From Anaerolineales bacterium UBA4823 (GTDB lineage: Bacteria > Chloroflexota > Anaerolineae > Anaerolineales > UBA4823): a stretch of DNA of 36,236 nt. The stretch lies in NCBI GenBank assembly GCA_002402275.1, contig DHFN01000025.1, positions 1 through 36,236 on the forward strand, given 5' to 3'. Numbering within the stretch: the stretch's first letter is position 1; each line of letters begins with the position of its first letter. The position numbers and the translations under genes are program-made. Of the stretch, positions 7,336-26,160 are shown in pieces. The notes beneath the pieces are model-generated. The model ran no database searches. It saw only the letters and a list, made by a program, of their open reading frames with translations, and was not told the DNA's origin.

Positions 7336-7414
7336 TAAACGTTCTATTGTGACCTTCGTTCCCTAGGTGTTTAATCTATTTTTTCATTATAGCCATTGAT
7401 TTTAATGTTTAAAC

Positions 7415-7444
7415 GGGGCTGTCTATGATCCTTAGAGCAGCCCC
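7415..7444. terminator. Candidate bidirectional intrinsic terminator between convergent genes
   Basis: GGGGCTGTCTA / TAGA(g)CAGCCCC stem (11 bp with one bulge) and a 7-nt loop. T-rich DNA follows on the + side (TTGGGTATTAATTTTTGTTTCTTT) and A/T-rich DNA lies on the other side. It sits between the stops at 7335 and 7467. Confidence 0.55.
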
Positions 7445-7466
7445 TTGGGTATTAATTTTTGTTTCT

Positions 7467-9047: not shown

Positions 9048-9119
9048 AACATTATTTCAAAAAACAACCCTTTTCCTCTGTGAGCCCTACCTAAAAATTC
9101 CAGAAATCGGAGGTAATAA

Positions 9120-10640: not shown

Positions 10641-12023
10641 ATGACCTCGGAAACAAGCCTTAACCCGAATATAAAATGGTTTGTGTTGGTTTCTATCGGA
10701 GTCGGAACATTTATGACTGCTCTGGATATCAGCATTATCAATACTATCCTTCCGATTGTAACCAAAGCATTCCAGGCTCCCGTCAATCAAACCGAATGGA
10801 TCTCCTTGATTTATTTATTACTGGTCAGTGGATTACTCCCTAGTTTCGGCCGATTAGGAGATCTAAAAGGTCACAAGAACATTTATCTGATTGGATTTTC
10901 CCTTTTCATTTTGGGATCACTTTTATGTGCTTTATCTCCGGCGATTTATTTTCTGATCTTGTCACGTAGCCTTCAGGCAATTGGGGCTGCAATGCTTTCT
11001 TCAAACTCGCCGGCAATCCTCACAAAGAACTTTCCTTCCACCCAACGTGGTCAGGCATTAGGGCTCCAGGCAACCATGACTTATCTAGGGTTAACAGTTG
11101 GCCCAATTTTAGGAGGATGGTTAACTGAGCTCTATGGCTGGCGAAGTGTTTTTACTATCAATATTCCAGTAGGAATAATTGCTTTTTTGTTGAGCTTATA
11201 TTTAATTCCCAATGAAAAACCACATCCCGAAGAAATCAGGTTTGATTATCAGGGTGCAGTTTTTTTCCTTGGAGGTTTTACATCGTTACTACTGGGTTTA
11301 AGTATGGCTTCGGAATGGGGTTGGTTGTCCGTTCCAACAATAATTACTTTAGCACTAGCAATTATATTGCTTGGCATTTTTATCTGGACAGAAAAAAGCA
11401 GTCAGTCTCCTATGTTAGATTTACACCTCTTCTCCCAACCAGGGATTTCCCATTCCATTTTTGCTGCCGTGCTAAATTATATGTGCGTTTATAGCAACTT
11501 ATTTCTCATGCCTTTTTATTTACTTCAAGGCCGGGGTTTGGTACCCTCAAAAGCCGGGTTAATTATTTCCATTCAACCTCTAATCATGTCAATCATCGCT
11601 CCCGTAAGTGGGTCATTGTCAGATAAAATTGGCACCAAATTACCAGCATTTCTGGGGATGCTTGGATTAGCCGTTGGGACAATCTTGCTATCCACAATCA
11701 ACGACACCACATCTATCTGGTTAATCCTCACTTATTTGGCAATTTCAGGATTGGGAATTGGCTGTTTTCTTCCTCCAAACAGCAGCGCAATCATGGGTTC
11801 TGCTCCGTTAAATCAAACCGGAATCGCAGCTGGGTTACTCGCCACAGCCCGTAACGTAGGCATGGTCTTGGGAATTGGTATCTCAGGTGCAGTATTTACC
11901 ACAACCTTAACAAAACATCATTCGGCTATTTCCGGGATCTTTTCAGCTGTCCAGGCTGGATTTTTAACAGCCTTTGTAATCTCTATCCTCGGTGTCTTAG
12001 TTACTGGCTTTGGGAAAAGCTAA
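10641..12023 (+). CDS. MFS transporter, DHA2/EmrB-like (about 14 TM segments)
   Basis: Highly hydrophobic 460-aa protein with the MFS loop motif GRLGDLKGHK and the TALDISIINTILP N-terminal pattern typical of DHA2 drug:H+ antiporters. It starts 12 nt after glpK. Confidence 0.8.
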   Translation: MTSETSLNPNIKWFVLVSIGVGTFMTALDISIINTILPIVTKAFQAPVNQTEWISLIYLLLVSGLLPSFGRLGDLKGHKNIYLIGFSLFILGSLLCALSPAIYFLILSRSLQAIGAAMLSSNSPAILTKNFPSTQRGQALGLQATMTYLGLTVGPILGGWLTELYGWRSVFTINIPVGIIAFLLSLYLIPNEKPHPEEIRFDYQGAVFFLGGFTSLLLGLSMASEWGWLSVPTIITLALAIILLGIFIWTEKSSQSPMLDLHLFSQPGISHSIFAAVLNYMCVYSNLFLMPFYLLQGRGLVPSKAGLIISIQPLIMSIIAPVSGSLSDKIGTKLPAFLGMLGLAVGTILLSTINDTTSIWLILTYLAISGLGIGCFLPPNSSAIMGSAPLNQTGIAAGLLATARNVGMVLGIGISGAVFTTTLTKHHSAISGIFSAVQAGFLTAFVISILGVLVTGFGKS

Positions 12024-12029
12024 TTTTTT
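12018..12029. repeat. Left copy of the target-site duplication (AGCTAATTTTTT)
   Basis: Identical 12-mer at 19718-19729. It abuts the left terminal inverted repeat and contains the MFS stop codon (TAA 12021-12023). Confidence 0.75.
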
Positions 12030-12040
12030 AGCCACCATAC
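12030..12040 (+). repeat. Left terminal inverted repeat of the insertion (AGCCACCATAC)
   Basis: Exact reverse complement is present at 19707-19717, and a same-orientation copy at 19071-19081. Confidence 0.75.
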
Positions 12041-12164
12041 GCTTTTGATGTTCAGTCTGGTAAAGAGGATCATTGCCCATAGGTAATGGTGATCTCAAAG
12101 TGATGACTGTCCCGCCGTAGCCAAGTGAAACCATTTTGATCTGTACTACTATCCCGGAATACAT

Positions 12165-12425
12165 GTGCATCCGTGTGTCAAGCACTACGCAGGGGTAAGG
12201 GAGATCGCTGAAATGACCAGCAATATCCCTCACCCTTACGAAGAAGGTGTGGCTGAATTATGGATCAACAGCTATGCAGAAGCCTTTAGCCGTATTGAAT
12301 CGCTTCAGCTTGCCATCACCTTAGGCAAATCCAACCAGCTTATTGGTGCCATCGGTCTGAGCTTCGATTCACAAAACCGTTCTGCGGAACTTGGCTATTG
12401 GATTGGTGTTCCCCACTGGGATGGG
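12165..12425 (+). pseudogene. GNAT (RimJ/RimL-type) N-acetyltransferase fragment, 3'-truncated
   Basis: IPHPYEEGVAELWI....LAITLGKSNQLIGAIGLSFDSQNRSAELGYWIGVPHW matches the N-terminal two-thirds of Acetyltransf_3-type GNATs. The expected WGKGyatEA continuation is absent in all three frames after about 12425. The remainder of the 186-aa ORF is low-complexity read-through. Confidence 0.55.
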
Positions 12426-12620
12426 CCGTCTCCTAATGAAACCACTGCGCGGTTCAAGCCAGCATACGGTCCAGTAATCGTCAGTGTGGATAAAATGCTC
12501 TTATTTATATATTTAACCTCCTTCACAAACCTCTCCCTCTTTCCTGGCAGGAAAGAACGAAGGGATTCAATCAGGTCGGGGGAAGGAGAGGCGCGGTACA
12601 CAAAGTTCCTGGTCTATTTT

Positions 12621-12908
12621 CTAGGGCGACGAGTGATTTTTCAGGACGAGAGGAAGGAAGATACGATACTCAAACTCTCCGCACCAGTAGCCCAAGCAGC
12701 CCTTATAGTTAGTGCTGGCGGATGAGCCGATAGTTGTCTGCCCTATGGTAAAGTTGACCGCGTACTGAGCCGAGCTGGCTTGTCCCCCTCCCCCACCAGT
12801 CAATGGAACGAACCAGTCGAGATGGTAGTGGTCGGAAGACACCGCCTGGGCACTAGCGTTCAGCAGGAGCAAGACCGCTAGGGCTAAGAGTAACGCTATC
12901 CGTTTCAT
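12621..12908 (-). CDS. Small secreted protein of unknown function (95 aa)
   Basis: Signal peptide MKRIALLLALAVLLLLNASAQA. Three S-x-x-Y-containing units (SSDHYHLDW, SSAQYAVNFTIGQ, STNYKGCLGYW). C-terminal YRIFLPLVLKN. Starts 15 nt downstream of the 316-aa gene. Confidence 0.6.
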   Translation of the reverse strand: MKRIALLLALAVLLLLNASAQAVSSDHYHLDWFVPLTGGGGGQASSAQYAVNFTIGQTTIGSSASTNYKGCLGYWCGEFEYRIFLPLVLKNHSSP

Positions 12909-12922
12909 AGTGCGTCTCCTTC

Positions 12923-13873
12923 CTAGTAAGTGGTCTGCACGGTCAAGCGCACCCCGCCGATCGTGACATAGTCGCTATCGTTGTTAAAGAATAAACCAAG
13001 CCGAAGCGTGATGATACCCTGGCTCTGCGAGAGGGTGTTCAGTGCGCTGTCTGTTGCTAGATCGTAATTGGTAGCCGTGTTGTCCTGTTGGTTTGTGGTG
13101 TCATCAAACAGACTCACGAAGGAATCTGCGTCGGTTTGCTTGTACAGTTCCGTCTCACTAATATAGGCGTTGGCGCCATCCTGGCACTTGTAGTAAACCC
13201 TAATCCAAGTCACCCGTACCGGTTGTCCGTAAAGCACGGCGGGAATTGTGATCGGAAGCCGGATGTGCCTGGTACCCACAGTAGCGGATCCGGCATAGAA
13301 ATTAGTTGATCCCCCCGATGAGGTCCACCTAGTCGAATCATCGCTGGTGTTCTTGACGAACTCAGCGCTGGGGACAAAAACGTACGACGTGTCACCCTTG
13401 ATCACCGCCCCAGGATACACGGTGATAGCGTAAGGGACCGGATTGATCGGCTGGCGCGGCGTCATCTCTGGGTCATCGCCTACCTTGACGCCCAGGTAAA
13501 GTTGCTGACCGGTGATCGCCTGGTTCCAACAGAGCATGTTGATCATAAATAGTCCATTGGACACACTTACCGTACCATCGTAGCTACAAACCGCCGTCCC
13601 ACCGCTGAGTGCATCGTAAATATTTGCTACAATGGGGTAGTCACCGTTTAGCATATTTCCAGCGGCGTCGGTTAGCCGGCCTTGAATGGGTACATAGCTG
13701 AGCGTTGTCACTGCCGGACCGGTTTCCTCTTCCACGCTTGTCCCCCCCGCTCCAGCCTCTTGCCCGACTTCACCTTCCGGCGGCTGCGGCTCCTGTGCAA
13801 GACTCAGCCCCGCTGCCAGGGCGATGCCTAACAGCGTAACTAAAATGCTGATAAAAAACAATTGTCGTTTCAT
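12923..13873 (-). CDS. Secreted protein of unknown function (316 aa)
   Basis: Signal peptide (MKRQLFFISILVTLLGIALAAGLSLAQ) followed by an acidic/Gly-rich linker. The IQGRLTDAAGNMLNGDY....SNGLF....LYLGVKVGDDPEMTPRQPI..VPYA pattern is seen in uncharacterised secreted proteins. Strong SD GGAGG upstream. Confidence 0.65.
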   Translation of the reverse strand: MKRQLFFISILVTLLGIALAAGLSLAQEPQPPEGEVGQEAGAGGTSVEEETGPAVTTLSYVPIQGRLTDAAGNMLNGDYPIVANIYDALSGGTAVCSYDGTVSVSNGLFMINMLCWNQAITGQQLYLGVKVGDDPEMTPRQPINPVPYAITVYPGAVIKGDTSYVFVPSAEFVKNTSDDSTRWTSSGGSTNFYAGSATVGTRHIRLPITIPAVLYGQPVRVTWIRVYYKCQDGANAYISETELYKQTDADSFVSLFDDTTNQQDNTATNYDLATDSALNTLSQSQGIITLRLGLFFNNDSDYVTIGGVRLTVQTTY

Positions 13874-13969
13874 TTTTTACCTCCATATTGGGATTGTGGA
13901 TAAAATAGTCTTGATCTCTCCGCGGATAGTTGTCAGTCACCTTGACTCGTTAAACAGGATAACTCACTG

Positions 13970-14013
13970 ATGTCAATGACTGGTCACAAGTTTGTCGCAG
14001 TTTTGTCGCAATT
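13970..14013 (+). promoter_or_regulatory. Array of four 11-bp phased direct repeats (core TGTC; best units TTGTCGCAGTT, TTGTCGCAATT) upstream of the secreted-protein genes
   Basis: Units start at 13970, 13981, 13992 and 14003: ATGTCAATGAC, TGGTCACAAGT, TTGTCGCAGTT, TTGTCGCAATT. Read on the minus strand, the first unit overlaps a TTGACA -35-like hexamer (13971-13976) that faces the 12923-13873 gene. The arrangement resembles OmpR/PhoB-type boxes. Confidence 0.45.
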
Positions 14014-14123
14014 TACCGCTGGATTGTTGACAATGGATTTAAACACGGATATTCCAGGGGCGACTGGGGGTAGGTTTGGATTCCAGCCTTATGATTTTTC
14101 CGAAACTAATCCTTTAACCGCCC

Positions 14124-14831
14124 TTATCCCGGCTTCAAACGATAGCCAATCCCCTCCAATTTTTCGATCTGGATTCCTAGCTCCCCTAGCTTATTGTGAA
14201 GGCAACGGATAGCCTCATCAACAGTACCCTCGCCGTAGGCGTCTTCAGCTAATTCCATGATCTCCAAAAGATACATTCGGCCGAAAACCCTGCCCGGGTT
14301 GCGCAGCAGCAAACATAACAGGTCGAATTCAAGTGCGGTTAGCTCGACCGGTTTTCCGGCGATAGTCACCTGGCGCTGGCTGGGGTTCAGGGAAAGGTCG
14401 TGGTAAGCTAAGCAACGGGTGTGTTTTTTCCGGTCGGCGGAAACGATGCGCCGTACCCGTTCCACACGCCGTAGATGGGCACGTACCCGCGCTTCCAGCT
14501 CGCTGATTTTAAAGGGCTTGGTGATGGTCTCATCAGCGATCAAGCCCAGGGTGGTCATCTGGTCACTGTCCGGATCAAGCCTCCAGCTCTGAGAGGTAAA
14601 CATCAACACCGGGGTGGCTGATATCTGACGCAGGCGGTGCAGCACTTCCCTGCTATCCAATACGGGGATCACCCAATCAAGCAAGATCAAATCGGGCTGA
14701 TATTGAACGTATAGGTGCAAAGCGGACTGCCCGTCACTGGCATGGAAAACTCGATAGCCATACTTTTCCAGCCCTTGCACGATGAGCTGGGCTAGGGCAG
14801 CCTCATCTTCAACCAACAAGATCGTGGTCAT
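14124..14831 (-). CDS. OmpR/PhoB-family response regulator, divergent paralog (RR2)
   Basis: Receiver domain (ILLVEDE, DLILLDW, TKPF) plus a winged-helix C-terminus ending GIGYRLKPG. Relative to RR1 it has an insertion in the receiver (SWRLDPDSDQMTT) and a recognition-helix region with fewer basic residues (GTVDEAIRCLHNKL against RSVDNTILRLRKKL). Confidence 0.8.
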   Translation of the reverse strand: MTTILLVEDEAALAQLIVQGLEKYGYRVFHASDGQSALHLYVQYQPDLILLDWVIPVLDSREVLHRLRQISATPVLMFTSQSWRLDPDSDQMTTLGLIADETITKPFKISELEARVRAHLRRVERVRRIVSADRKKHTRCLAYHDLSLNPSQRQVTIAGKPVELTALEFDLLCLLLRNPGRVFGRMYLLEIMELAEDAYGEGTVDEAIRCLHNKLGELGIQIEKLEGIGYRLKPG

Positions 14832-14854
14832 CTCAAGAGAAGCATAACCGACGC

Positions 14855-14898
14855 CTGTCGGAAATCTGCCTCAGGATTGTCGCAGATTTGTCACAGAT
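14855..14898 (+). promoter_or_regulatory. Second array of four 11-bp phased direct repeats of the same motif, spanning the HK stop and the HK-RR2 spacer
   Basis: Units start at 14855, 14866, 14877 and 14888: CTGTCGGAAAT, CTGCCTCAGGA, TTGTCGCAGAT, TTGTCACAGAT. The array lies 24-67 nt upstream of the RR2 start codon (14831). The last 8 codons of the HK ORF are encoded by the repeats. Confidence 0.45.
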
Positions 14899-17800
14899 TT
14901 GGAGGCTGGTAGAGTTACCGTAAAGCAACTGCCCTCGCCAAGAGTGCTTTCTACTGTGGCTGTACCCCCCATCGCCTCGGTCAATTCCCTTACCAATGCC
15001 AGACCTAACCCGGCACCTCCTCCTGCCTGGCTCTGACCACGATAGAAACGTTCCCAAATGTAGGGAAGATCGGCAGGCGCAATACCTTCGCCGGTATCTT
15101 GCACAGCAATGGTTACCGTCTCCGGCTGGCAGTGCAGGCTGACGATCACGATCCCGCCTGGTAGCGTGTGCCGCACTGCGTTGTGTAGCAAGTTCATCAA
15201 CACCTGTAGCAGACGCTGCTCATCAGCTACAATGAAGATCTCATCCTGGCTAGTCTTCAGCAACAATTCCACTTTTCCTTGTTGCCAAGCTGGGGCAGCA
15301 AAAGTCTCTACCGCTCTGCGGGCTAAACTGACTAGGTCTAGCGGTTTAGGGGAAAGCGACAGGTGATCCACTTCGAGACGGGAAAGGGTGAACAGGTCAT
15401 CGAGCAAAGTTTGTAGGCGATCCAGCTCCTGGGAGATGACTTCCAACCGGTTGATCTGCGACTGCCCAGGTTGGCTACCTTCAAGTGCGGAATCCAGGTG
15501 GGCGCGCACGGTCGCCACCGGGGTGCGTAGATCGTGCGAGATAGAAGCCACTAGTTGACGGCGGGATTCGAGCAACGCAGCGATGCGGTCGCGCTCACCT
15601 TGTACCGCCCAGATGGTTTGCTTTATATGGCGCCGCTCTAGTTCCCTAACACGGTAACGCCAGGCAGCGGCGACAATTGCGGCTCCCATAAGAGCATACA
15701 AGCTATAAGCCCACCACGTTCGCCAGGGTGGGGGGGTGATAGTAACTTTGAGTGCAGTGCCGGATTCGTTCCATACCCCATCGTTATTAGAGCCTTTGAC
15801 CCGAAAGATATACGTGCCCGCCGGTAGATTAGCGTACGAGGCAAACCGCCGATTACTATCTACGACGATCCAATCCCGGTCGAAACCTTCTAGCATATAA
15901 GCGTATTGATTCTTGCTGGGGATGGTGTAATCCAGGGCGGCAAACTCAAATGAAAAAACGTAATCAATGTATGAGAGGGTGATCTCTTCGGTTTCACCAA
16001 TGGATTTCGTTAGTGGCAAGTCTTCTCCGATGGCAACTGGCTGGTTGAATATCTGGAAACCAGTCAGGATCACCGGTGGTAGGTGGGGATTATCTACAAT
16101 TTTAGCTGGGTTGAACACATTGAAGCCGTTGACGCCACCGAAGAACAACTCGCCTTTTGGGTTTTGATCGCATGCACCTCGATTGAATTCGTTGCTTTGC
16201 AAGCCATCACGCACATCGTAGTTCTTTACATTCGCAGTGCGCGGGTCGAATCTCGTAATCCCCTTACCTGAGCTGATCCATAGGAAACCAGAAGCATCTG
16301 CTAAGATACACCCGATGGCATCATTCGCCAATCCATCTTTTTCGGTGAAACTGGTAAAGGTTCCTGTCCCCCGGTCGAAGCGATTTAACCCATCATCGGT
16401 GCCGATCCAAAGGACTCCAGCAGAGTCTTCTTGGATTGCCGCAGCAGCATTGGAACTGAGGGAATTTGGATTGGTTGGGTTGTTACGATAATGCACAAAG
16501 TCTTGGGTTTGAGGGTCGAAGCGGTCTAACCCCTGGGTAGTGCCAACCCACAGGGTCTTGTTGTGGTCTTCATAGATTGCCAGGATGAAATCGCTGCTCA
16601 GACTAGCGAGGTCGTTAGGGTCGTGACGGTAGTGCGTGAAACGCTTGCTCTCCCGGTCAAAGAGGTTCAATCCACCACCCATCGTTCCTACCCAAAACGC
16701 GCCGTTCGAATCCTCCAAGATAGCCCAAACTTTGTTATTGCTCAAACTGGCTGGGTCGTCAGGGTCGTTGCAGTAGGTGGTGAAGCTCCCCGTTTCCCGG
16801 TCAAGGCGGCTCAATCCACCCTCGTAGCTCCCCACCCATAGCTCACCGCCTGAATCCTCATAAATGACCAGCACTGCTGTGGAGGGCAGGCTGGAAGGGT
16901 CCTCAGGGCTCTGTCGGTAATGGATGAACTGCCCGGTCTGGCGGTCAAGCAGGTCTAACCCGCCTTCTGGTCCGCTGGTGCCCACCCACACTCCGCCGGT
17001 TGCATCTTCGCGGATAGCCCAGATGGTGTTGCTGCCAAGACTGGTTTGATTCTCTGGATCGTTGCGATAGCGTTCGAAACGGCGCATCTTACGATCCAGC
17101 TTGTTCAGCCCAGCTACGGAAGTACCGATCCAAAGCACCCCCGATTCATCTGCGTACAATGCGGTGATGGTGTCAAAGCTCAAACTACCTAGGTCGCGCG
17201 GGTCGTTGAAATAATGGACAAACCTTACGCTTTGGCTAGCTTGCTCGCCATTTTGAGTATATTCGTTCAACCCGTTGGAAGTGCCTACCCACAATATACC
17301 CGAGGCGTCTTCGAATATAGCGGTGACTTCGTTAGAACTCAGGCTGGAAGAGTTTTTTGGGTCATTCAAGAAACGGGTAAAATCCTGTCGGAAGGGATGG
17401 AGCACGTTCAACCCGCCATTGGTGCCCACCCATAGTGTCCCGTTTTGATTAACGAAGAGCGCATTTACTTCATCATTGCTCAAGCTGCCAGCGTCGGAAG
17501 GATTATGGCGGTAATGGATAAACCGTCCTGTAACGGGATCGAACTGATTTAACCCTCCTCCCTTAGTGGCAATCCACAACCGGCTCGCTCTATCCTCACT
17601 AATAGCACTAACCGTATCACTGCTCAGGCTGGATGGATCATCAGGATTATGCTGAAATTGAAGGAATTTTCCAGTACCCTGGTCGAGCCGATTCAATCCA
17701 CCACCATCTGTGCCAACCCAGATATTCCCACCTGCACTTATATAAACAGAAGTGACAGTATCATGGCTTAAGCTGGTCGGATCCTCGGGGTCGTGGCGAT

Positions 17801-18176
17801 ATTGGGTGAACAATTCAGTGAGGCGGTCGAAGCGGTTTAACCCTCCACCATCCGTACCTATCCATAGGTTACCCGAGGAGTCCTCGGTAATCGCACGGAT
17901 GGTGTTGGCACTCAGGCTGTGGAGATCGCCTGGATCACGTTTATAGATAGTAAAGGTATAACCATCGTACTTGTTCAGACCATCTTCGGTGCCAAACCAC
18001 ATCAAACCGCGGCTGTCTTGGAATATACAATAGATAGTGATTTGAGACAAACCTTGTTCGATTGAAATTCGTTCGAAAGAAGGAGCGGATTCCTGAGCTA
18101 GCACTGGCGAGGTAAGGAAAAATGCCAGGCTAATAATCAAAAAAAATGACCTAATCAATGCTCTATTAGATATCAA
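14871..18176 (-). CDS. Sensor histidine kinase with a large extracytoplasmic double beta-propeller (Reg_prop repeats) and a Y_Y_Y domain
   Basis: N-terminal signal/anchor. About 14 repeats of the pattern D..G.LW(I/V)GT..GLN.(F/L)D....F..Y. Y_Y_Y-like YAYMLEGFDRDW....GTYIFRVKGSNNDGVW. One TM segment. H-box SISHDLRTP, N-box LLHNAVRHT, G1 DTGEGI, G2 GGAGLGLALV. The TTG start directly abuts the RR1 stop. Confidence 0.85.
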   Translation of the reverse strand: MISNRALIRSFFLIISLAFFLTSPVLAQESAPSFERISIEQGLSQITIYCIFQDSRGLMWFGTEDGLNKYDGYTFTIYKRDPGDLHSLSANTIRAITEDSSGNLWIGTDGGGLNRFDRLTELFTQYRHDPEDPTSLSHDTVTSVYISAGGNIWVGTDGGGLNRLDQGTGKFLQFQHNPDDPSSLSSDTVSAISEDRASRLWIATKGGGLNQFDPVTGRFIHYRHNPSDAGSLSNDEVNALFVNQNGTLWVGTNGGLNVLHPFRQDFTRFLNDPKNSSSLSSNEVTAIFEDASGILWVGTSNGLNEYTQNGEQASQSVRFVHYFNDPRDLGSLSFDTITALYADESGVLWIGTSVAGLNKLDRKMRRFERYRNDPENQTSLGSNTIWAIREDATGGVWVGTSGPEGGLDLLDRQTGQFIHYRQSPEDPSSLPSTAVLVIYEDSGGELWVGSYEGGLSRLDRETGSFTTYCNDPDDPASLSNNKVWAILEDSNGAFWVGTMGGGLNLFDRESKRFTHYRHDPNDLASLSSDFILAIYEDHNKTLWVGTTQGLDRFDPQTQDFVHYRNNPTNPNSLSSNAAAAIQEDSAGVLWIGTDDGLNRFDRGTGTFTSFTEKDGLANDAIGCILADASGFLWISSGKGITRFDPRTANVKNYDVRDGLQSNEFNRGACDQNPKGELFFGGVNGFNVFNPAKIVDNPHLPPVILTGFQIFNQPVAIGEDLPLTKSIGETEEITLSYIDYVFSFEFAALDYTIPSKNQYAYMLEGFDRDWIVVDSNRRFASYANLPAGTYIFRVKGSNNDGVWNESGTALKVTITPPPWRTWWAYSLYALMGAAIVAAAWRYRVRELERRHIKQTIWAVQGERDRIAALLESRRQLVASISHDLRTPVATVRAHLDSALEGSQPGQSQINRLEVISQELDRLQTLLDDLFTLSRLEVDHLSLSPKPLDLVSLARRAVETFAAPAWQQGKVELLLKTSQDEIFIVADEQRLLQVLMNLLHNAVRHTLPGGIVIVSLHCQPETVTIAVQDTGEGIAPADLPYIWERFYRGQSQAGGGAGLGLALVRELTEAMGGTATVESTLGEGSCFTVTLPASKSVTNLRQS

Positions 18177-18881
18177 TCAAGAACCCCTATCTCTGTGTAG
18201 ACGGTATCCAATGCCCCATACTGTCTCGATAATGTCGCCCATTTCGTTTAATTTCTTACGCAAGCGCAGAATCGTGTTATCCACCGAACGGCTGCCCTCG
18301 ATATATTGTTCTCCCCAGACAGTTTCCAACAGGTAAGTGCGGCTGAAGGTCCGCCCCGGGTTGCGCAGTAGCAGATATAGCAGATCAAATTCGATAGGCG
18401 TCAGATTAACCGCCTGATCCCTCATGGTTGCCTGATGCTGATCAGCGTCCAGAATCAAACTCTGATAAGAGAGACATTGCCTGGGCTGTCCCCGATCAGC
18501 GTTAACAATCTGTTGAACACGCTCCACCCGGCGAAGCAGCGCCCGCACCCGGGCGACTAGCTCACGCAGGCTGAAAGGCTTGGTGAGGTAATCGTCTGCG
18601 CCGAGTTCAAGGCCAATAACTCGGTCAGCTTCTTCAGAACGGGAGGTGAGCATCAACACCGGGATGGACGAAGTCTGACGCAGGCGGCGTAGTACTTCCA
18701 ATCCGTCCAACGCAGGGATCATCCAGTCGAGCAGTATCAAATCGGGTTTGACCTGCTCGCACAGGATCAGGGCGGTTAATCCATCGCCGGCGTGATGTAC
18801 CTGGTAGTGATTATTTTCCAACTCCTGGATAATCACTTGGGCGAGTTTGATCTCATCTTCGACTAAAAGGATCGTTGTCAT
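18177..18881 (-). CDS. OmpR/PhoB-family response regulator (RR1, canonical)
   Basis: ILLVEDE, DLILLDWMIPALDG, LTSRS and GADDYLTKPF in the receiver. Winged helix RSVDNTILRLRKKL....VWGIGYRL. Confidence 0.85.
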   Translation of the reverse strand: MTTILLVEDEIKLAQVIIQELENNHYQVHHAGDGLTALILCEQVKPDLILLDWMIPALDGLEVLRRLRQTSSIPVLMLTSRSEEADRVIGLELGADDYLTKPFSLRELVARVRALLRRVERVQQIVNADRGQPRQCLSYQSLILDADQHQATMRDQAVNLTPIEFDLLYLLLRNPGRTFSRTYLLETVWGEQYIEGSRSVDNTILRLRKKLNEMGDIIETVWGIGYRLHRDRGS

Positions 18882-19092
18882 TATTTATAAGGTAACACAT
18901 AAATCATGTATATGTCAAATATTTGGTGTATCAAACAACTTTGTTAAGGAAGAAGTGCGGGTGACTCTTTAGCAAGAGAACAAAAAGAGATAAAATGGCT
19001 TAGAAGTGACGCGGAAACAATTGAGTGAAAGGGTTGGAAGCGCTGAGATTGAGTAAGGCAATGAAGGTCTAGCCACCATACAGTTTAGTAAT

Positions 19093-19632
19093 TCATTGGT
19101 AATAACAAAAGATGATTTGGCAAGGTTGTGAATTAATCAATAATCGTTCAATGAAACATAAGCCAATCGGTAAAAAGTTTCTAACATAGCCTAACATTGC
19201 CAATTGAACTTCCAGCGTACTGTGACCTTTTACATGTTTGACCTATGTCCAAGCTATCGGAATAGCCCGCTTACGGTATGCTAAACTAACCATCAATAAT
19301 TGATGTGTATACTCAATCTTGGTTCCATCCACTATCAACCTTGTCTACTGCAAGTTCTTGGCTTGCTGTTTTAGCCATTCATTTGCAATTGGTTCATACA
19401 AACCGTGTACATCACTTGCTGGATTAGACAGCAAACGATTATTCTGTTGAACAGCGTAAAGCAATTTTGCCTCCCCAGGTATCTTCCTCGCTATCCTGCT
19501 CATCTAAACCAAACGGCTTTTGTATATTCCTACAATCAACCTAGCCAAGTATGAAATACGAGTTTTTCTTTCCACTTTTTTCAGTTGTCGAATCCACATT
19601 TTCCAGGTATTATATAGTTGGTTGATCGGCAT
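19093..19632 (-). pseudogene. DDE transposase pseudogene (IS4-superfamily-like N-terminal part), with three in-frame TAG codons and no frameshift
   Basis: Hand translation from ATG 19632, preceded by SD AAGGAG: MPINQLYNTWKMWIRQLKKVERKTRISYLARLIVGIYKSRLV*MSRIARKIPGEAKLLYAVQQNNRLLSNPASDVHGLYEPIANEWLKQQAKNLQ*TRLIVDGTKIEYTHQLLMVSLAYRKRAIPIAWT*VKHVKGHSTLEVQLAMLGYVRNFLPIGLCFIERLLINSQPCQIIFCYYQ*. The stops are at 19504-19506, 19345-19347 and 19243-19245. The L.RLI.GI..S....S.IA..IPG.AK and L.(I/V)DGT patterns recall IS4-type transposases. Only about 179 codons remain, so the C-terminal catalytic half is missing. Confidence 0.6.
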
Positions 19633-19647
19633 AACATTCTCCTTCTT

Positions 19648-19675
19648 TTGTTTTTACAAACTTCAAAGGTACAAT
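19648..19675 (+). promoter_or_regulatory. Candidate outward-facing promoter inside the IS right end, pointing at the degV-like operon
   Basis: TTGTTT (19648-19653), a 16-nt spacer, then TACAAT (19670-19675). Sigma70-like match only; there is no experimental support. Confidence 0.3.
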
Positions 19676-19706
19676 TTTTGTGCCGACCAACATTTTCTTT
19701 AAAAAT

Positions 19707-19717
19707 GTATGGTGGCT
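19707..19717 (-). repeat. Right terminal inverted repeat of the insertion (GTATGGTGGCT, the reverse complement of AGCCACCATAC)
   Basis: Exact reverse complement of 12030-12040. It is immediately followed by the right TSD copy. Confidence 0.75.
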
Positions 19718-19729
19718 AGCTAATTTTTT
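19718..19729. repeat. Right copy of the target-site duplication (AGCTAATTTTTT)
   Basis: Identical to 12018-12029. It is followed by TATTAAAAGGATTGAAATTATG, which is the SD and start of the degV-like gene. Confidence 0.75.
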
Positions 19730-19748
19730 TATTAAAAGGATTGAAATT

Positions 19749-20606
19749 ATGGTTAGGATAATTACTGATACTACATCTGTATTGCCCCAGGAAATTGCCA
19801 AGAAATACCGCATTCCGGTCATCCCTCAAATTATTCATTTTGATGATGAGACTTACTTGGAAGGAATAGAAATTGACAATGCCACTTTTTTGAGGAAATT
19901 AAAAAGTTCCAAAAATCTCCCAAAAACATCCGCACCTCCTCCTGAATTATTTGCCCAGGAATTTCAAAAAACGACCGATCCCAATGAAGCAATAATTTGT
20001 ATTCATCCTTCTATAGAAGTGAGCGGTACCATTCGATCGGCTACAATTGCTGCTCGAGATTTTTCCTATTTAGATATCCGCATCATTGATACTAAGGTGG
20101 TCGCAAGTCCGCTGGCAACGATGGTAACCCTGGCTGCGCAATGGGCTCAAGAAGGTTTATCAGCGGATGTTATTATAGACAATCTAAATCAATTAATCCA
20201 AGACTGCCATTTATATTTTTTGGTGGATACCTTAGAATATATGGCAAAAGGAGGACGGATAGGGAATGCATCTGCATTGCTTGGAAGTGTCTTGCAAATC
20301 AAACCGATTCTCATGTTCAAGAATGGACAAGTAGATGTATTTGAAAAAGAAAGAACCCATAAGCGGGCTCTGGAAAGATTAGAGAATATCGTTGTCGAAC
20401 AGATCCCTAAGAACCGTGAGGCATATCTTTCCTTAATGCATGCAGATATCCCGGATAAAATCAAAGAATTTGCTGATCGTTTATCGGAATCCCTTTCTAT
20501 CCCATCCATCCCCATATTTGAAATACCTCCAGCAATTATCACCCATGCTGGTCCGGGAGTTCTTGGAGTAGGATTTTTCACTCCGCCTTTTAGCGACAGT
20601 AAATGA
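19749..20606 (+). CDS. DegV-family (fatty-acid-binding) protein
   Basis: MVRIITDTTSVLPQEIAKKYRIPVIPQIIHFDDETYLEG and later YMAKGGRIGNASALLGSVLQIKPIL are typical DegV patterns. ATG 19749 has SD AAAGGA 8 nt upstream. The ORF-track start at 19680 lies inside the IS remnant. Confidence 0.85.
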   Translation: MVRIITDTTSVLPQEIAKKYRIPVIPQIIHFDDETYLEGIEIDNATFLRKLKSSKNLPKTSAPPPELFAQEFQKTTDPNEAIICIHPSIEVSGTIRSATIAARDFSYLDIRIIDTKVVASPLATMVTLAAQWAQEGLSADVIIDNLNQLIQDCHLYFLVDTLEYMAKGGRIGNASALLGSVLQIKPILMFKNGQVDVFEKERTHKRALERLENIVVEQIPKNREAYLSLMHADIPDKIKEFADRLSESLSIPSIPIFEIPPAIITHAGPGVLGVGFFTPPFSDSK

Positions 20607-23170
20607 GTTTAGATTCCTTACTCGAGCGCTGGCAAGCTGACCAGTCAATCCGAGAAAATATTGTATTTTGGGAGAAAACGCCCGCCCGCCCCGCAGTAAA
20701 ATGCCCTTTTCCTGCTGAAATTTCCCCTTCTTTACAACATGTCCTCAGAAGTCAAGGAATTCCGCAACTCTATCAGCATCAAGCTAACGCTTACAAATTA
20801 ATAAACAATGGCGAGAACCTTCTGATTACTAGTGGAACAGCAAGCGGAAAATCATTATGTTATAACCTCCCGGTCATTAATGATCTTATTCAGCATCCAA
20901 ATAATTGTGCATTCTATTTATTTCCGACCAAAGCACTTGCACACGATCAAGCTCTAAAGTTAAAAGAATTATTGCACTTTATCCCGGAATTTAACAGAAA
21001 ACACCCTCAAGAATCCGATGCGTTAATTGGAATGTACGATGGAGATACCCCTCCAACTCAGCGGCAATTCATTCGCCAAAACGCCCAACTGATTTTCACC
21101 AATCCAGATATGCTTCATTTTGGTATTCTTCCCAACCACCCTCAGTGGGATAGGGTCTTATCAAATTTACGTTTCATAATCATTGATGAGATTCATGTTT
21201 ATCGAGGGGTTTTTGGTTCTCATATCGCCAATGTCATTCGTAGATTAAAAAGGCTAATTGAGTATTATGGGGGGAACGTAAACTTTATTCTGACTTCTGG
21301 CACAATCTCCAACCCTTATGCGTTTGCAACAAAACTCATCGAAGAACCTATCACTTTATTGGATGAAGATGCTTCGCCTAAAGGAGAAAAAAACCTCATA
21401 TTCTATAATCCCCCCATTATCCAGGCAGAATTTGGGCTGCGGGCACATCCTTTTCGGGAAGCAAAAAAATTAATGGATGATCTCCTTAAAAACTGCTCTC
21501 AATCAATTGTCTTCTGCACAAGTCATAGATCCGTTGAACGTTTATTAATCGAGCTCCGCCAAGTCTATGATTCAGAGCTAGAGGGGAGTTTTAGTCAAAT
21601 TCAAGGTTATCGGAGCAGCTACTTACCAGAACATAGGCGGCAGATAGAACAAGATTTAAAATCAAATAAGATAAAAACTGTCGTTGCAACCAACGCTCTT
21701 GAACTCGGCATTGATATTGGCGAACTAGAAGCGGTCCTCTTGATTGGTTTTCCGGGTAGTATTGCCTCAACCTGGCAACAAATCAGCCGGGCAGGCAGAA
21801 AGAACCAGACTTCTCTAGGTATCCTCATCCTGACATCCGATCCATTAGACCAATACCTTGCCCGAAATCCCCAATACTTTCTCGAAAGCTCCCCTGAACA
21901 ACCATTGATTAATCCGGATAACCCATTAATCCTTCTCAATCACTTGCGTTGCGCAATGGCAGAATTACCATTTCAAGAGCATGAAAACTTTGGAAAAGCG
22001 AACCAACCCTTAGTTGAGGCTTTGTTCACTGCGATTTTGAATTACAAAGAAGCAATCTATGAAACCGGCAGCTATTATTATATTTCCCCAACTGCACCCC
22101 AAAATTTCTCCTTGCGTAGCAGCAGTTTCTCGAATATTCAACTCATCGTTGAACATGAAAACTCATTAAACCGAATTGGTTATATTGATCGAAATAGTGC
22201 TGACCGATTAGTCCATCCAGGTGCGATCTATCTTCATGAAGGGGAAACCTATCGTGTGATGGAGTTAGACCTTGATAATAACACAGCGAAATTATCACCA
22301 ACAAATGTCGAATATCTTACTAACCCCCATCAAGAAAGCACGATAGATGACCTTACCGCTTTATCCACGCGACACTTCCGATATTCAGAAGGAGAAAGTT
22401 TTCGATTAGGTTACGGAGATGTGACTGTAAACATGCAAGTGACAGGGTACTCAAAAGTGGATTGGGATTCGCATCAGGTTATTGAAAGAATTCCCCTGGC
22501 TCTTCCTCCTCAAACGTTAGCCACTAAAGCCTTTTGGATCAGTATCGGGGAACAACTAGTTAATGACCTTCGCTCCCAAGGGCTCTGGTCAGCTGAACCT
22601 AACAAATATGGAACAGGGTGGGAACACCAAAAAAACCTTGCCCGAGCGAGAGATGGATACCGTTGCCAAATTTGTGAAGTACCCGAGACAGATCACGCGC
22701 ATGATGTCCATCATAAGATTCCTTTCCGGCTCTTTGAGGATTCAGAAGAAGCGAATCGGCTCGAGAATCTGATTACTCTTTGTCGAAATTGTCACCAAAA
22801 AGTAGAAAGTAACCTACGCATCCAAAGCGGCTTAGCTGGATTAGGGTATGCTTTGAGCCATATTGCACCATTATTTGTGATGTGTGACCGAAATGATCTC
22901 GGGCTTCATGTTGACCCAAATTCTAGATGGGAAAACCGATTACCAACCATTTTGATCTATGAGAATATTGCTGGTGGAATAGGATTAAGCCAACGAATCT
23001 TTGAAATCGCATTAGAATTATTACACTCGGTTTATCACCATATCGCCCAATGTCCTTGTCCAGATGGCTGCCCTTCTTGTACGGGAGCAGTGAGTGAAAA
23101 TGGGATTAGCGGAAAAGCCGAAGCGTTGATTTTACTGGAAAAAATAATTAACTATGAACAACCTTTCTGA
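20603..23170 (+). CDS. mrfA: MrfA/YprA-family DEAD/DEAH-box (DEIH) helicase with a C-terminal DUF1998 zinc domain and an inserted HNH nuclease motif
   Basis: LYQHQANAY, Walker A TSGTASGKS, FPTKALAHDQ, TNPDMLH, IIIDEIHVYRGVFGSHIANVIRRL, ATNALELGIDIG and QQISRAGR match the YprA/MrfA pattern. DUF1998 cysteines are CPCPDGCPSC (23051-23080). The HNH motif RCQICEV....HHKIPF....NLITLCRNCH lies at about 22664-22795. The start overlaps the degV stop (ATGA). Confidence 0.85.
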   Translation: MSLDSLLERWQADQSIRENIVFWEKTPARPAVKCPFPAEISPSLQHVLRSQGIPQLYQHQANAYKLINNGENLLITSGTASGKSLCYNLPVINDLIQHPNNCAFYLFPTKALAHDQALKLKELLHFIPEFNRKHPQESDALIGMYDGDTPPTQRQFIRQNAQLIFTNPDMLHFGILPNHPQWDRVLSNLRFIIIDEIHVYRGVFGSHIANVIRRLKRLIEYYGGNVNFILTSGTISNPYAFATKLIEEPITLLDEDASPKGEKNLIFYNPPIIQAEFGLRAHPFREAKKLMDDLLKNCSQSIVFCTSHRSVERLLIELRQVYDSELEGSFSQIQGYRSSYLPEHRRQIEQDLKSNKIKTVVATNALELGIDIGELEAVLLIGFPGSIASTWQQISRAGRKNQTSLGILILTSDPLDQYLARNPQYFLESSPEQPLINPDNPLILLNHLRCAMAELPFQEHENFGKANQPLVEALFTAILNYKEAIYETGSYYYISPTAPQNFSLRSSSFSNIQLIVEHENSLNRIGYIDRNSADRLVHPGAIYLHEGETYRVMELDLDNNTAKLSPTNVEYLTNPHQESTIDDLTALSTRHFRYSEGESFRLGYGDVTVNMQVTGYSKVDWDSHQVIERIPLALPPQTLATKAFWISIGEQLVNDLRSQGLWSAEPNKYGTGWEHQKNLARARDGYRCQICEVPETDHAHDVHHKIPFRLFEDSEEANRLENLITLCRNCHQKVESNLRIQSGLAGLGYALSHIAPLFVMCDRNDLGLHVDPNSRWENRLPTILIYENIAGGIGLSQRIFEIALELLHSVYHHIAQCPCPDGCPSCTGAVSENGISGKAEALILLEKIINYEQPF

Positions 23171-24383
23171 TCAGCTTAAAGCTTTGGGCATTGAAGTCGG
23201 CTTGGATTCAATAAAATCTCAACCAATTCAACCGGATTTCCTGGCGAAGGATCTTGGTGGGCAAGTTATTGAAAATTATTCAGGCAACCTGGTTTTAGTC
23301 GAAAATCACTATGAGTTAGAAACATTTTTCCCTCAAGAATCTATTTCTCCCATCATCCTAAAATGGGCAAATTCAGCAGTTCAAGAATTGCTAGGCTTTT
23401 CTGATTTTACGATAATGGACATTGAAACGACCGGGATGTTAGGAGAGAGTGGGGTTTTAGCATTTCTGGTTGGTTTAGGTACCATCACGGACAATCAATT
23501 TACAGTTCAACAATTTCTGATTACAAATCCCGCTCAAGAAATGGCGCAACTTACAACCATCGAAGCGCAATTTGCTAAAGCTAAAGGGATCATTACTTAC
23601 AATGGAAAGTCGTTTGACCTCCCCATCCTCTCCAATCGCTATCGGTTCCATCGTTCTCCTCCCCCTTTCAAACCGCTTATTCATCTCGATTTGCTGCATC
23701 TAGCACGCCGGATTTGGAAAAACCGTCTACCTAATCGGGCTTTACGAAACATTGAAGCCGAAATTTTAGATGTTCAACGGAAGGTTAATGATATTCCTGG
23801 TTGGATCATCCCCCAAATTTATCATGAATTTATTCAAACCAAACGACCAGAGCTGCTCCTTCCAGTTCTATATCATAATCAAATGGACGTTTATTCATTA
23901 GCAAGATTATTTATTCATCTAAACCAACTTATCGAAAACCCAAATCAAAGTGATTTTGATTATGAACAGGATCAAATCGCATTAGCCCATTTCTACGAAA
24001 ATTTGGGGTTTTATGAACAAGCAATTCCGCAGTACCAAAAATGCATCCTGGGGTCGAAAAACCTTGAAGATAAAGTACATCTTATGGAAGATTTGGCAAT
24101 GCTTTATAAAAAGCAGAAAGACTTTTCCTGTTCAATAAATTTATGGGAACAAGCTGCCTCAATGGGAAGCATTATCTCGCATGTTGAATTAGCGAAGTAT
24201 TATGAGCATATCACTAAAGATTACTCTTTTGCATATTCTTGGACTGAATCCGCTTTGAAGTTGGTTAATTCAAAAAAAGAACCCCCAGAAGAACACATCC
24301 GCTGGCAACCTGAGTTACAATATCGTTTAGAGCGTCTAGCACGAATTATCCATTCCCATTTTTTTGTTGGAGGAAAACCATGA
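23154..24383 (+). CDS. mrfB: MrfB/YprB-like RNase H-fold (DEDDh) exonuclease with a C-terminal TPR/Sel1-like region
   Basis: Exo motif I IMDIETTG (23418-23426 encodes DIE), motif II YNGKSFDLPIL, motif III YHNQMDVYSLARL. The C-terminal repeats (FYENLGFYEQAIPQYQKC, LAMLYKKQKDF, ELAKYYEH) look TPR/Sel1-like. It overlaps the helicase 3' end by 17 nt. Confidence 0.75.
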   Translation: MNNLSDQLKALGIEVGLDSIKSQPIQPDFLAKDLGGQVIENYSGNLVLVENHYELETFFPQESISPIILKWANSAVQELLGFSDFTIMDIETTGMLGESGVLAFLVGLGTITDNQFTVQQFLITNPAQEMAQLTTIEAQFAKAKGIITYNGKSFDLPILSNRYRFHRSPPPFKPLIHLDLLHLARRIWKNRLPNRALRNIEAEILDVQRKVNDIPGWIIPQIYHEFIQTKRPELLLPVLYHNQMDVYSLARLFIHLNQLIENPNQSDFDYEQDQIALAHFYENLGFYEQAIPQYQKCILGSKNLEDKVHLMEDLAMLYKKQKDFSCSINLWEQAASMGSIISHVELAKYYEHITKDYSFAYSWTESALKLVNSKKEPPEEHIRWQPELQYRLERLARIIHSHFFVGGKP

Positions 24384-25021
24384 GAACCGGATCTTATTTA
24401 GAGAGATTATTGGGTGAAAAAGAAAACATTATTTTTACCACTCGGCAACATTGGACAATCCTGGTTGGCAAGATCCTATTAGAAGTTATCATCATACTGG
24501 CTGTTTTGGCTGCTTGTATCTGGTCATCTATGACCTATCCAGCATTTGCCATTTTCATTCTACCAATTGGTTTTATTCTAATTATTATCCCGGTCATCAC
24601 AATGACCCTCGACATTGCTCGTTGGTCTAACTACCAATTTATTGTGACCAATCGGCGAGTCATTCAGATCAGTGGAATTTTTAATAAAAACGTCGTTGAC
24701 AGTAATCTGGAAAAAGTGAATGACTTAAAACTGACCCAGCCTTATCTTGGAAGGATATTTGATTATGGGGATGTAGAAATTCTGACCGCCAGTGAATTAG
24801 GGGTCAACCTTTTTAAAAGGATTGCTCATCCCATTCAATTTAAAACTGCCCTCATTAATGCCAAGGAACACCTGGACCACGAGAATTTTATCATTCCTGA
24901 GGATGATTCCCATAAAAGCATTCCCGCTTTGATTACAAATCTCGATCAACTTCGCAAACAAGGTATTCTTACCGATCAAGAATTTGAACAAAAAAAGAAC
25001 GAGCTTCTATCCCGTCTTTGA
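24380..25021 (+). CDS. Membrane bPH (YdbS/YdbT-like, DUF304) domain protein with a C-terminal SHOCT domain
   Basis: Two TM helices, then YQFIVTNRRVIQISGIF....DYGDVEI (bacterial PH-like pattern). The C-terminal LDQLRKQGILTDQEFEQKKNELL is a SHOCT-type motif. The start overlaps the upstream stop (ATGA). Confidence 0.65.
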   Translation: MRTGSYLERLLGEKENIIFTTRQHWTILVGKILLEVIIILAVLAACIWSSMTYPAFAIFILPIGFILIIIPVITMTLDIARWSNYQFIVTNRRVIQISGIFNKNVVDSNLEKVNDLKLTQPYLGRIFDYGDVEILTASELGVNLFKRIAHPIQFKTALINAKEHLDHENFIIPEDDSHKSIPALITNLDQLRKQGILTDQEFEQKKNELLSRL

Positions 25022-25029
25022 AATAGACT

Positions 25030-26160
25030 ATGACTCAACTCATTTATTATGCCGAGTTAACCTGGCTTGAAGTGGCAGATCTTCCGCGGGATTGTCCAAT
25101 GGTTCTTCCATTAGGGGATGGATATGCTTGGAACAAAGTTTCCGAAGCACTATCCAATCCAACTAAAATGGTGATCTTTCCAACATTCCCTTATGGTTGG
25201 AGAGGAAGCTTATTGTATCTTCCCGAGAATGTCTTGACGGGCATTCTCTTGAATCTACTCCAAAGTGTCCGAGATGATGGTTTTACTCAAATCTTTGTAC
25301 TTACGCCTAGCGGATTAGATTTAAAGTTAGGATGCACCCAAATTGTACAACGGATTAATCAACCTCTCTCGGATTATTTTTCCTTAAATGATTTAGAAAA
25401 GGTTGTCTTAATCCCAATTGGACATACTGAACAACATGGTTATCACCTCCCCCTATCTACAGATACTGAAATCATTAACGCTATTGCTCAAGGTGTCATC
25501 ATCAATTTGCCTGAGAAATCAATCTCCCTGCCAGTTATGCCCTATGGTGTCAGTACCCACCGCGATTCATTTGCTGGGACCCTCAATGCAGGAGGACGCG
25601 CTTTCGAAGATTTTACTTTATCTATCCTAGATGCGCTTGTCCAAAAGGGTTTTACTCGTTTTTATTTGATGAGTGGACATGGCGGTAATTGTTCTTTTTT
25701 AGTTAATGTTGTTAAATATGCCGGCGAACGATATCCCAATATTTTTTGTGCGACCTCTTATCTTTATCTTAATACTCCCGAGGGTATAAAAGCACTAGAA
25801 ACCCATCGTCAATCTGCGATAGGTGGAATGGGGCATGCTTGTGAATTAGAAACCTCTTTGATGCTTTGTCTCCGCCCCGAGCTAGTTCACATGGAAAAGG
25901 TAGTTGATGAAACCGAGTTCATATCCACCCCTTCCTACTATATGGATTGGATAGAAGGGGGTTCCCTCGTAGCAAATCCACCTTGGACCGATGATACTCA
26001 AACCGGCGCGTATGGCGCTGGTAGCTTGGGAACTCGTGAAAAAGGTCAAATTTGGTTAGAATCTGCCATCCGAGAAAAAATTAACCAGGTTCATGAAATC
26101 GAAGAACAATATCAACGCAGATTACCTAGGAAGATCAGAGCAGGTAAATATCATAAATAA
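25030..26160 (+). CDS. Creatininase-family amidohydrolase with an N-terminal extension of about 105 aa
   Basis: VLIPIGHTEQHGYHLPLSTDT, LPVMPYGVS..H, MSGHGGN and HACELETSLML match the creatininase/MftE/ArfB family. The catalytic core starts near residue 125. Confidence 0.8.
   Translation: MTQLIYYAELTWLEVADLPRDCPMVLPLGDGYAWNKVSEALSNPTKMVIFPTFPYGWRGSLLYLPENVLTGILLNLLQSVRDDGFTQIFVLTPSGLDLKLGCTQIVQRINQPLSDYFSLNDLEKVVLIPIGHTEQHGYHLPLSTDTEIINAIAQGVIINLPEKSISLPVMPYGVSTHRDSFAGTLNAGGRAFEDFTLSILDALVQKGFTRFYLMSGHGGNCSFLVNVVKYAGERYPNIFCATSYLYLNTPEGIKALETHRQSAIGGMGHACELETSLMLCLRPELVHMEKVVDETEFISTPSYYMDWIEGGSLVANPPWTDDTQTGAYGAGSLGTREKGQIWLESAIREKINQVHEIEEQYQRRLPRKIRAGKYHK

Follow-up and report, generated by a model that had tools for sequence, protein, structure and literature searches.

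The closest described counterparts of the genes considered here are the helicase MrfA (YprA) and the exonuclease MrfB (YprB) of Bacillus subtilis, a pair implicated in mitomycin C repair. A two-hybrid interaction between these two proteins has been published, and mrfAB complementation was successful only among close relatives (10.1101/426304). In the B. subtilis model as published, no enzyme is named for the incision from which the DNA end arises. A survey of the YprA family (Bell et al., preprint) reports that helicases of the repair branch occur with MrfB or without a conserved context (PMC12458937). Here we describe a locus in the window, by which we mean the whole 36,236-nt stretch of contig DHFN01000025.1 from Anaerolineales bacterium UBA4823, where genes for a DegV-family protein, an MrfA-like helicase, an MrfB-like exonuclease and a membrane protein with bPH_2 and SHOCT domains (bPH/SHOCT below) follow one another on the same strand. 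An earlier reading of the DNA (the original prediction) had taken the stop-start overlaps between these genes as a sign of co-translation and fixed stoichiometry, and had proposed a membrane-tethered module that could serve repair or defence.

Our analysis makes it probable that the locus, which comes from an uncultured member of the Anaerolineales, is a compact co-directional array of three separate units and not a single four-protein system. The first unit would be DegV, ancestrally placed behind genes for an FGGY sugar kinase and an MFS transporter. The second would be the mrfA-mrfB pair, encoding a 3'-5' SF2 helicase, here with an inserted HNH endonuclease domain, and a DEDDh 3'-5' exonuclease. 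The third would comprise the bPH/SHOCT gene and the gene that follows it, which encodes a creatininase-family amidohydrolase.

DegV and bPH/SHOCT are probably not partners of the mrfA-mrfB pair

The gene calls of the original prediction are sound. The four open reading frames (ORFs) lie on the plus strand where they had been placed (Table 1), Pfam bears out the domain assignments of DegV, helicase, exonuclease and bPH/SHOCT, and the three junctions are as described: a shared ATGA at 20603-20606 between DegV and helicase (4-nt overlap), a 17-nt overlap at 23154-23170 between helicase and exonuclease, and a second ATGA at 24380-24383 between exonuclease and bPH/SHOCT (again 4 nt). The start codons are supported by homologues that can be aligned from residue 1 of each of the four proteins. 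A GTG at 19680 was rejected as the DegV start: it falls within an insertion sequence (IS) remnant, and the alignment of homologues begins with the ATG at 19749. The creatininase-family gene begins 8 nt past the bPH/SHOCT stop codon. The closest homologues of the locus proteins are named as Anaerolineales (Chloroflexota) metagenome-assembled genomes. The earlier reading did not cover the HNH domain of the helicase, the fifth gene (creatininase) or the tight packing of genes throughout the window.

Two neighbourhood surveys bear on whether these genes belong together. The helicase-side survey covered 80 loci from species-representative genomes, searched within 10 kb by tblastn and profile search; the bPH/SHOCT-side survey covered 80 metagenome loci, 36-64 of them evaluable. 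DegV and bPH/SHOCT were found within 10 kb of the helicase in none of the 80 species-representative loci. The first and second genes downstream of the helicase are heterogeneous in Pfam scans, with CotD and YpsA in Bacillota as in B. subtilis. Viewed from the other side, MrfB lies directly upstream of bPH/SHOCT in 6 of 36 evaluable loci and within 2.5 kb in two more, while a creatininase-family gene lies directly 3' of bPH/SHOCT in 37 of 64 (gaps of -4 to 134 nt, mostly ≤10 nt).

The order DegV, helicase, MrfB, bPH/SHOCT, creatininase is kept in loci L001, L002, L003/L004 and L087, at 50-69% helicase identity. These loci are collinear with the window over at least 16 kb, from the HycI/hydrogenase maturation genes to Wzy_C, and the four-gene order was found only where collinearity has this extent, in a small number of Anaerolineales lineages. 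Because the whole region is collinear, the conserved order of the four genes carries no functional signal. In the class with 46-48% helicase identity the surroundings read ROK, helicase, MrfB, MFS (L005); helicase alone (L006); MFS, a small ORF, helicase, Fer4 (L088); and UvrD, PDDEXK, RecJ, Mut7-C, helicase (L089). The linkage of DegV and bPH/SHOCT to the pair thus does recur outside this genome, but as lineage-restricted synteny and not as the functional link that had been proposed.

Natural deletions in relatives are a direct test of such claims of functional linkage. In L091 the backbone of the window is kept and DegV is followed by bPH/SHOCT, the helicase, MrfB, creatininase and AAT genes all being gone (L091 4929-6639). 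In L093 DegV and bPH/SHOCT are intact around a remnant that covers only aa 255-397 of MrfB. At L093 3254-3681 and 4369-5211, all that is left is the C-terminal portion of MrfB together with pieces of the creatininase and AAT genes. We read DegV and bPH/SHOCT as neighbours that local gene order holds beside the mrfA-mrfB pair, and not as its partners.

The overlaps themselves are not conserved among relatives. Listed in the order DegV/helicase, helicase/MrfB and MrfB/bPH (in nt, with minus for an overlap), the gaps are -1, -8 and -4 in L001; +6, -8 and +21 in L002; +17, +2 and +2 in L003; and +18, +3 and +13 in L087. Tight junctions are also common across the window: of the 21 junctions between genes on the same strand, 6 are overlaps and 15 have a gap of at most 17 nt. 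Even the creatininase-family and AAT genes, which converge, share 10 nt where their 3' ends meet (26151-26160). The stop-start overlaps probably reflect genome compaction and probable co-transcription, and do not demonstrate shared function. For compact genomes this is a caution: ATGA overlaps and gene order among close relatives are no proof that the products work together.

A single repair module, tethered to the membrane, in which the four genes from DegV to bPH/SHOCT are translationally coupled and their products kept at fixed stoichiometry, is thus quite improbable, and the natural deletions already largely refute it. The overlaps on which this proposal builds are real, the gene order also extends to L097, L098 and L104 (48-69% helicase identity when these are counted with the loci above), MrfB adjoins bPH/SHOCT in L099, L109 and L110 as well, and no partner is known for the tetratricopeptide repeat (TPR) domain of MrfB. 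Against it stand the absence of DegV and bPH/SHOCT from all 80 helicase-centred loci, their survival in L091 and L093 after loss of the helicase and exonuclease, the usual position of bPH/SHOCT beside a creatininase gene, and a gene order that is kept only inside general synteny, with overlaps that vary among relatives and are frequent throughout the window.

Several observations weigh against dividing the locus into three units. The metagenome contigs are mostly short, and the 36-64 evaluable loci are phylogenetically non-independent. Adjacency of MrfB and bPH/SHOCT reaches beyond the closest clade, the helicase of L110 having 46% identity, which makes the neighbourhood old; in L092 and L119 one gene or ~1.4 kb separates the two. 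With a neighbourhood of this age, a functional link confined to the lineage is conceivable. The TPR domain of MrfB is not known to have a partner (PMC11194089). Three overlaps in a row somewhat exceed the local rate (3/18 among the other junctions). Finally, the operon boundaries at the locus are themselves inferred.

A predicted MrfA/MrfB-type repair pair

The central genes were correctly recognised as MrfA/MrfB-like. The helicase aligns with B. subtilis MrfA (PDB 6ZNP) at a phmmer E of 2.8e-175, collinearly over 12-648 and 741-847, and is ~41-44% identical to Bacillota orthologues. Pfam places DEAD (E 4e-27), Helicase_C (E 9e-15), WHD_HRQ1 and MZB (PF09369, E 3.3e-20) domains in it. The Walker A motif GTASGKS at 78 and DEIH at 195 are invariant across 18 homologues, and the four-cysteine motif CPCPDGCPSC at 817-826 is aligned with CPCHDGCPSC of MrfA. 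The equivalog cut-off of TIGR03817 (DECH_helic) is missed (613.7 vs 874.1 bits), with a match that is split by the HNH insert. An AlphaFold2 model of the helicase (pLDDT 82.9, pTM 0.80) has 6ZNP_A as its top Foldseek match (E 2e-66, TM 0.82). Judged by sequence and predicted structure, the helicase is a member of the MrfA/YprA repair branch. At L089 1-5727 an HNH-bearing helicase lies downstream of genes for a UvrD-like helicase, a PDDEXK nuclease, RecJ and Mut7-C, and this DNA-repair neighbourhood fits a repair role of the helicase.

The exonuclease matches the MrfB exonuclease core (PDB 8UN9) at E 1.6e-35 and contains a Pfam RNase_H_2 domain (E 2e-33). Its residues D89, E91, D155, H241 and D245 correspond to the DEDDh residues D107, E109, D172, H258 and D262 of MrfB (PMC11194089). 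Matches to TPR_12, TPR_8 and TPR_7 at 276-334 are below the Pfam cut-offs, and designed CTPR proteins match at E 6e-5. Taken together, the sequence evidence identifies the central genes as a putative repair pair of the MrfA/MrfB type. Among helicases without an HNH domain, MrfB lies directly 3' of mrfA in 32 of 38 loci from many phyla, mostly with an overlap or a gap of about 20 nt or less, and the published two-hybrid interaction gives this tight coupling a rationale (10.1101/426304). By homology with B. subtilis, MrfA would unwind the damaged strand in the 3'-5' direction and MrfB would degrade that strand.

A role in defence, the other function that the original prediction had raised, found no support in PADLOC. 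We give very little credence to the idea that the cluster is an anti-phage system akin to DISARM or Druantia, in which a DUF1998 helicase would act with HNH and DEDDh effectors. PADLOC helicase models do match the helicase (SngC 7e-38, BrxHI 7e-36, DruE 1e-33, DrmA 3e-25), helicase-nuclease fusions are typical for defence systems, and a mobile element adjoins the locus. However, these matches are confined to the generic SF2 core (~aa 40-420; for the DrmA and DruE models, parts of it within ~aa 40-460), and over its full length the protein is best matched by the repair enzyme MrfA. For the other four of the five proteins run, PADLOC gave nothing for DegV, bPH/SHOCT and creatininase and a weak DEDDh match for the exonuclease, and it found none of the DISARM or Druantia partners (DrmB, DrmC, methylase, DruA-D, DruH) next to the helicase. 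Genes on either side of the locus have housekeeping functions (hydrogenase maturation, sugar kinase, glycosyltransferase), the helicase gene is stable and syntenic in many Anaerolineales genomes and not part of an island, and the repair branch of the YprA family is phylogenetically distinct from the defence branches (PMC12458937).

An HNH domain within the helicase

Pfam detects HNH at aa 688-735 of the helicase (E 1.5e-08, above the Pfam cut-off), within an insertion (Table 1) whose point of entry, in the alignment to 6ZNP, falls between MrfA residues 632 and 645; the MZB domain of MrfA comprises residues 631-749 (PMC7797055). Residues C688, C691, H703, H704, N718, N722, C727, C730 and H731 do not vary among 18 homologues with 46-69% identity, and the AlphaFold model gives the insert a beta-beta-alpha fold at pLDDT 74-90. 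By sequence and model this is a canonical HNH domain of the zinc-finger type, apparently active as a nuclease.

The insert is present in all 120 best helicase homologues, and a library-wide search with the inserted segment returned 878 cluster representatives at E ≤1e-10, among them helicases of ~850 aa that carry the insert in the same place, along with numerous stand-alone HNH proteins (200-290 aa). An HNH insert in MrfA-type helicases is conserved across Chloroflexota. The HNH core is 50-59% identical to many of the stand-alone proteins, and the inserted domain may derive from that family. We saw the insertion mentioned neither in the MrfA structure paper nor in the MrfB paper or the 2025 YprA-family survey with its available supplements, and a search of the accessible literature for HNH insertions within MrfA/YprA turned up no relevant description.

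Among the species-representative loci (L007-L086), MrfB lies directly downstream of the helicase in 5 of 35 cases where HNH is present and in 32 of 38 where it is absent, a contrast that is confounded by phylum and for which the HNH class of L017 was assigned by hand. Two Chloroflexota loci whose helicase lacks HNH (L057, L082) have MrfB adjacent. From its position and conservation, the HNH domain could supply a nick or DNA end for the pathway. We tentatively suggest, as a possibility short of an even chance, that the HNH-bearing MrfA helicases of Chloroflexota are self-contained helicase-endonucleases, in which the HNH domain beside the DNA entry funnel would incise and so give the DNA end that MrfAB needs. 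Such an activity would explain why an adjacent MrfB is scarce. An HNH domain in an MrfA-type helicase could bear on the question of what produces the DNA end for excision repair of the MrfAB type.

It could also be supposed that HNH took over the nuclease role altogether, which would leave the adjacent MrfB-like gene a dispensable relic and no working two-protein unit. The scarcity of MrfB beside HNH-bearing helicases and the invariance of the HNH catalytic residues would suit this explanation, but we think it unlikely. The MrfB of the window is full length with all DEDDh residues present, its gene overlaps that of the helicase, and it is kept beside the helicase in every close relative. Furthermore, MrfB may sit elsewhere in other genomes, as it does 8 kb off in L008, and the presence of HNH coincides with a single phylum, so that the contrast in MrfB adjacency is phylogenetically confounded.

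The flanking units

The DegV protein, from a family that binds fatty acids, scores 261.7 bits (E 1e-77) against PF02645 and 290.5 bits against TIGR00762, for a cut-off of 99.7; the FakB1 equivalog cut-off is not reached (176 vs 350). In relatives DegV directly follows FGGY or MFS, and it belongs there with the upstream block of FGGY kinase and MFS genes.

The bPH/SHOCT protein has Pfam matches to bPH_2 (E 1.7e-13, 51.1 bits vs 22) and SHOCT (E 2.1e-07, 30.9 bits vs 27), and hydropathy peaks at ~aa 23-58 and 49-83 correspond to two N-terminal hydrophobic helices. A strong GGAGGA precedes its ATG. Full-length homologues with 54-72% identity occur in more than 120 Anaerolineales clusters. The bPH/SHOCT and creatininase-family genes are a conserved, tightly spaced pair; bPH/SHOCT usually has the creatininase gene, not MrfB, as its partner. 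An AAT/peptidase-C45-like gene is often convergent downstream of this pair (L093-L172). Where MrfB is absent, an M20 peptidase gene lies upstream of bPH/SHOCT in 7 of 24 loci; recurrent ORFs of ~400 aa at this position were considered as divergent MrfB and rejected, as they are these M20 peptidases. The creatininase, AAT and M20 neighbours suggest a link of bPH/SHOCT with amide hydrolases. We found no description of the bPH/SHOCT-creatininase pairing, although the literature was not searched for this pairing specifically. The pairing offers a first lead towards the role of this widespread membrane protein.

The insertion upstream of the locus

Collinearity of the window with L001 ends at 12017 and resumes at 19743, with an extra 7.7 kb between, and the insertion site is uninterrupted in L001, L002 and L003, where MFS or FGGY adjoins DegV. 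The 13-mer CTAGCCACCATAC has three copies in the window against 0.05 expected, at 12028-12040 (one mismatch), 19069-19081 and 19707-19719, the last of these inverted relative to the first. An 11-bp sequence, GCTAATTTTTT, is present at both ends of the insertion, and its left copy at 12019-12029 contains the TAA stop codon of the MFS gene. A minus-strand frame at 19243-19632 with in-frame stops is ~30% identical to IS4-family transposases (E 7e-8, tblastn against plasmids). The Pfam search of the conceptual translation of the IS remnant gave nothing, and an intact DDE transposase is absent from the remnant, where only the N-terminal frame with in-frame stops is left.

The cargo holds two response regulators of the OmpR type and a sensor kinase of 1101 aa (propeller/Y_Y_Y), besides an unknown gene and a GNAT fragment. 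From these features the 7.7-kb insertion (12019-19730) looks like a decayed composite transposon. A segment bounded by IS4-type repeats and carrying a two-component system has entered the MFS-DegV spacer and so severed DegV from the FGGY and MFS genes. The original prediction, that an IS insertion cut the array off from its upstream context, is essentially right, with the end of the element at 19719 and not at 19717. The outward promoter candidate at 19648-19675 (TTGTTT-16-TACAAT, 8/12 matches) is below the scan threshold, and the promoter and terminator scans gave site counts equal to those of shuffled sequence. The Rfam scan of the window found zero RNA families.

Elsewhere, the window is without the GNAT and FdhD genes at 7336-7466 and 9048-9119 that its relatives have (L001 924-1490 and 3419-4189). 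The GNAT fragment at 12165-12725 was considered as the syntenic GNAT missing from the window and rejected, the two being unrelated.

Table 1. Features of the locus and of the adjoining insertion (window coordinates)
Feature	Position	Strand	Basis or remark
DegV-family gene, FakB-like, 285 aa	19749..20606	+	Pfam DegV, TIGR00762
Putative MrfA/YprA-family SF2 DNA helicase with HNH insertion, 855 aa	20603..23170	+	
Insertion of ~92 aa (helicase aa 649-740) with predicted HNH endonuclease domain	22547..22822	+	Position at CON/MZB junction
Putative MrfB/YprB-type DEDDh 3'-5' exonuclease, possible C-terminal TPR region, 409 aa	23154..24383	+	
bPH_2/SHOCT membrane protein, YdbS/YdbT-like, 213 aa	24380..25021	+	
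Creatininase-family amidohydrolase gene, 376 aa, fifth co-directional gene	25030..26160	+	Pfam Creatininase, E 1.8e-56
Solo IS terminal repeat at left end of insertion, directly past MFS stop codon	12028..12040	+	One mismatch
Degenerate, internally deleted IS4-family element at right end of 7.7-kb insertion	19069..19719	-	Perfect 13-bp inverted repeats CTAGCCACCATAC
11-bp direct target duplication GCTAATTTTTT, right copy	19720..19730		Strandless; read directly from sequence

Comparison with known systems

The four-gene, membrane-tethered repair or defence module is unsupported, so there is no new system to record on that basis; parts of the locus can be set beside described counterparts. With IS4-family elements and composite transposons the insertion has in common its terminal inverted repeats of 13 bp, a target duplication of 11 bp and a frame resembling that of a transposase, but here only one degenerate IS copy and one solo repeat are left. 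The bPH/SHOCT protein follows the common plan of YdbS/YdbT-type proteins, with two transmembrane helices at the N-terminus, a bPH_2 domain in the cytoplasm and SHOCT at the C-terminus, an architecture of bPH_2 and SHOCT that is already on record (Eberhardt et al., 2013; PMC3581485). It differs from the known proteins of this kind in that its gene stands consistently beside a creatininase-family gene.

DISARM DrmA/DrmB and Druantia DruE have the SF2 core and the DUF1998/MZB zinc module in common with the helicase. Unlike those systems, the locus lacks partner genes, matches them in the helicase core only and lies in a housekeeping context. With the "YprA only" and MrfAB branches of the YprA-family survey (PMC12458937) it shares a putative repair-branch helicase for which MrfB is the sole recurrent neighbour in an otherwise variable context.

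The closest likeness is to the B. subtilis pair. Helicase and MrfA have the domain order NTR, RecA1, RecA2, WH, OB, CON, MZB in common, together with the four-cysteine zinc site, and the exonuclease is a predicted DEDDh enzyme like MrfB, possibly with the TPR region as well, its gene lying directly downstream in an overlapping or abutting position. Unlike MrfA, the helicase of the window has the ~92-aa HNH-nuclease insert at the CON/MZB junction, a feature absent from the available text and supplements of the Bell et al. survey (PMC12458937). It is this HNH insertion that makes the locus a variant of the known MrfAB-type pair; otherwise the locus is mostly ordinary.

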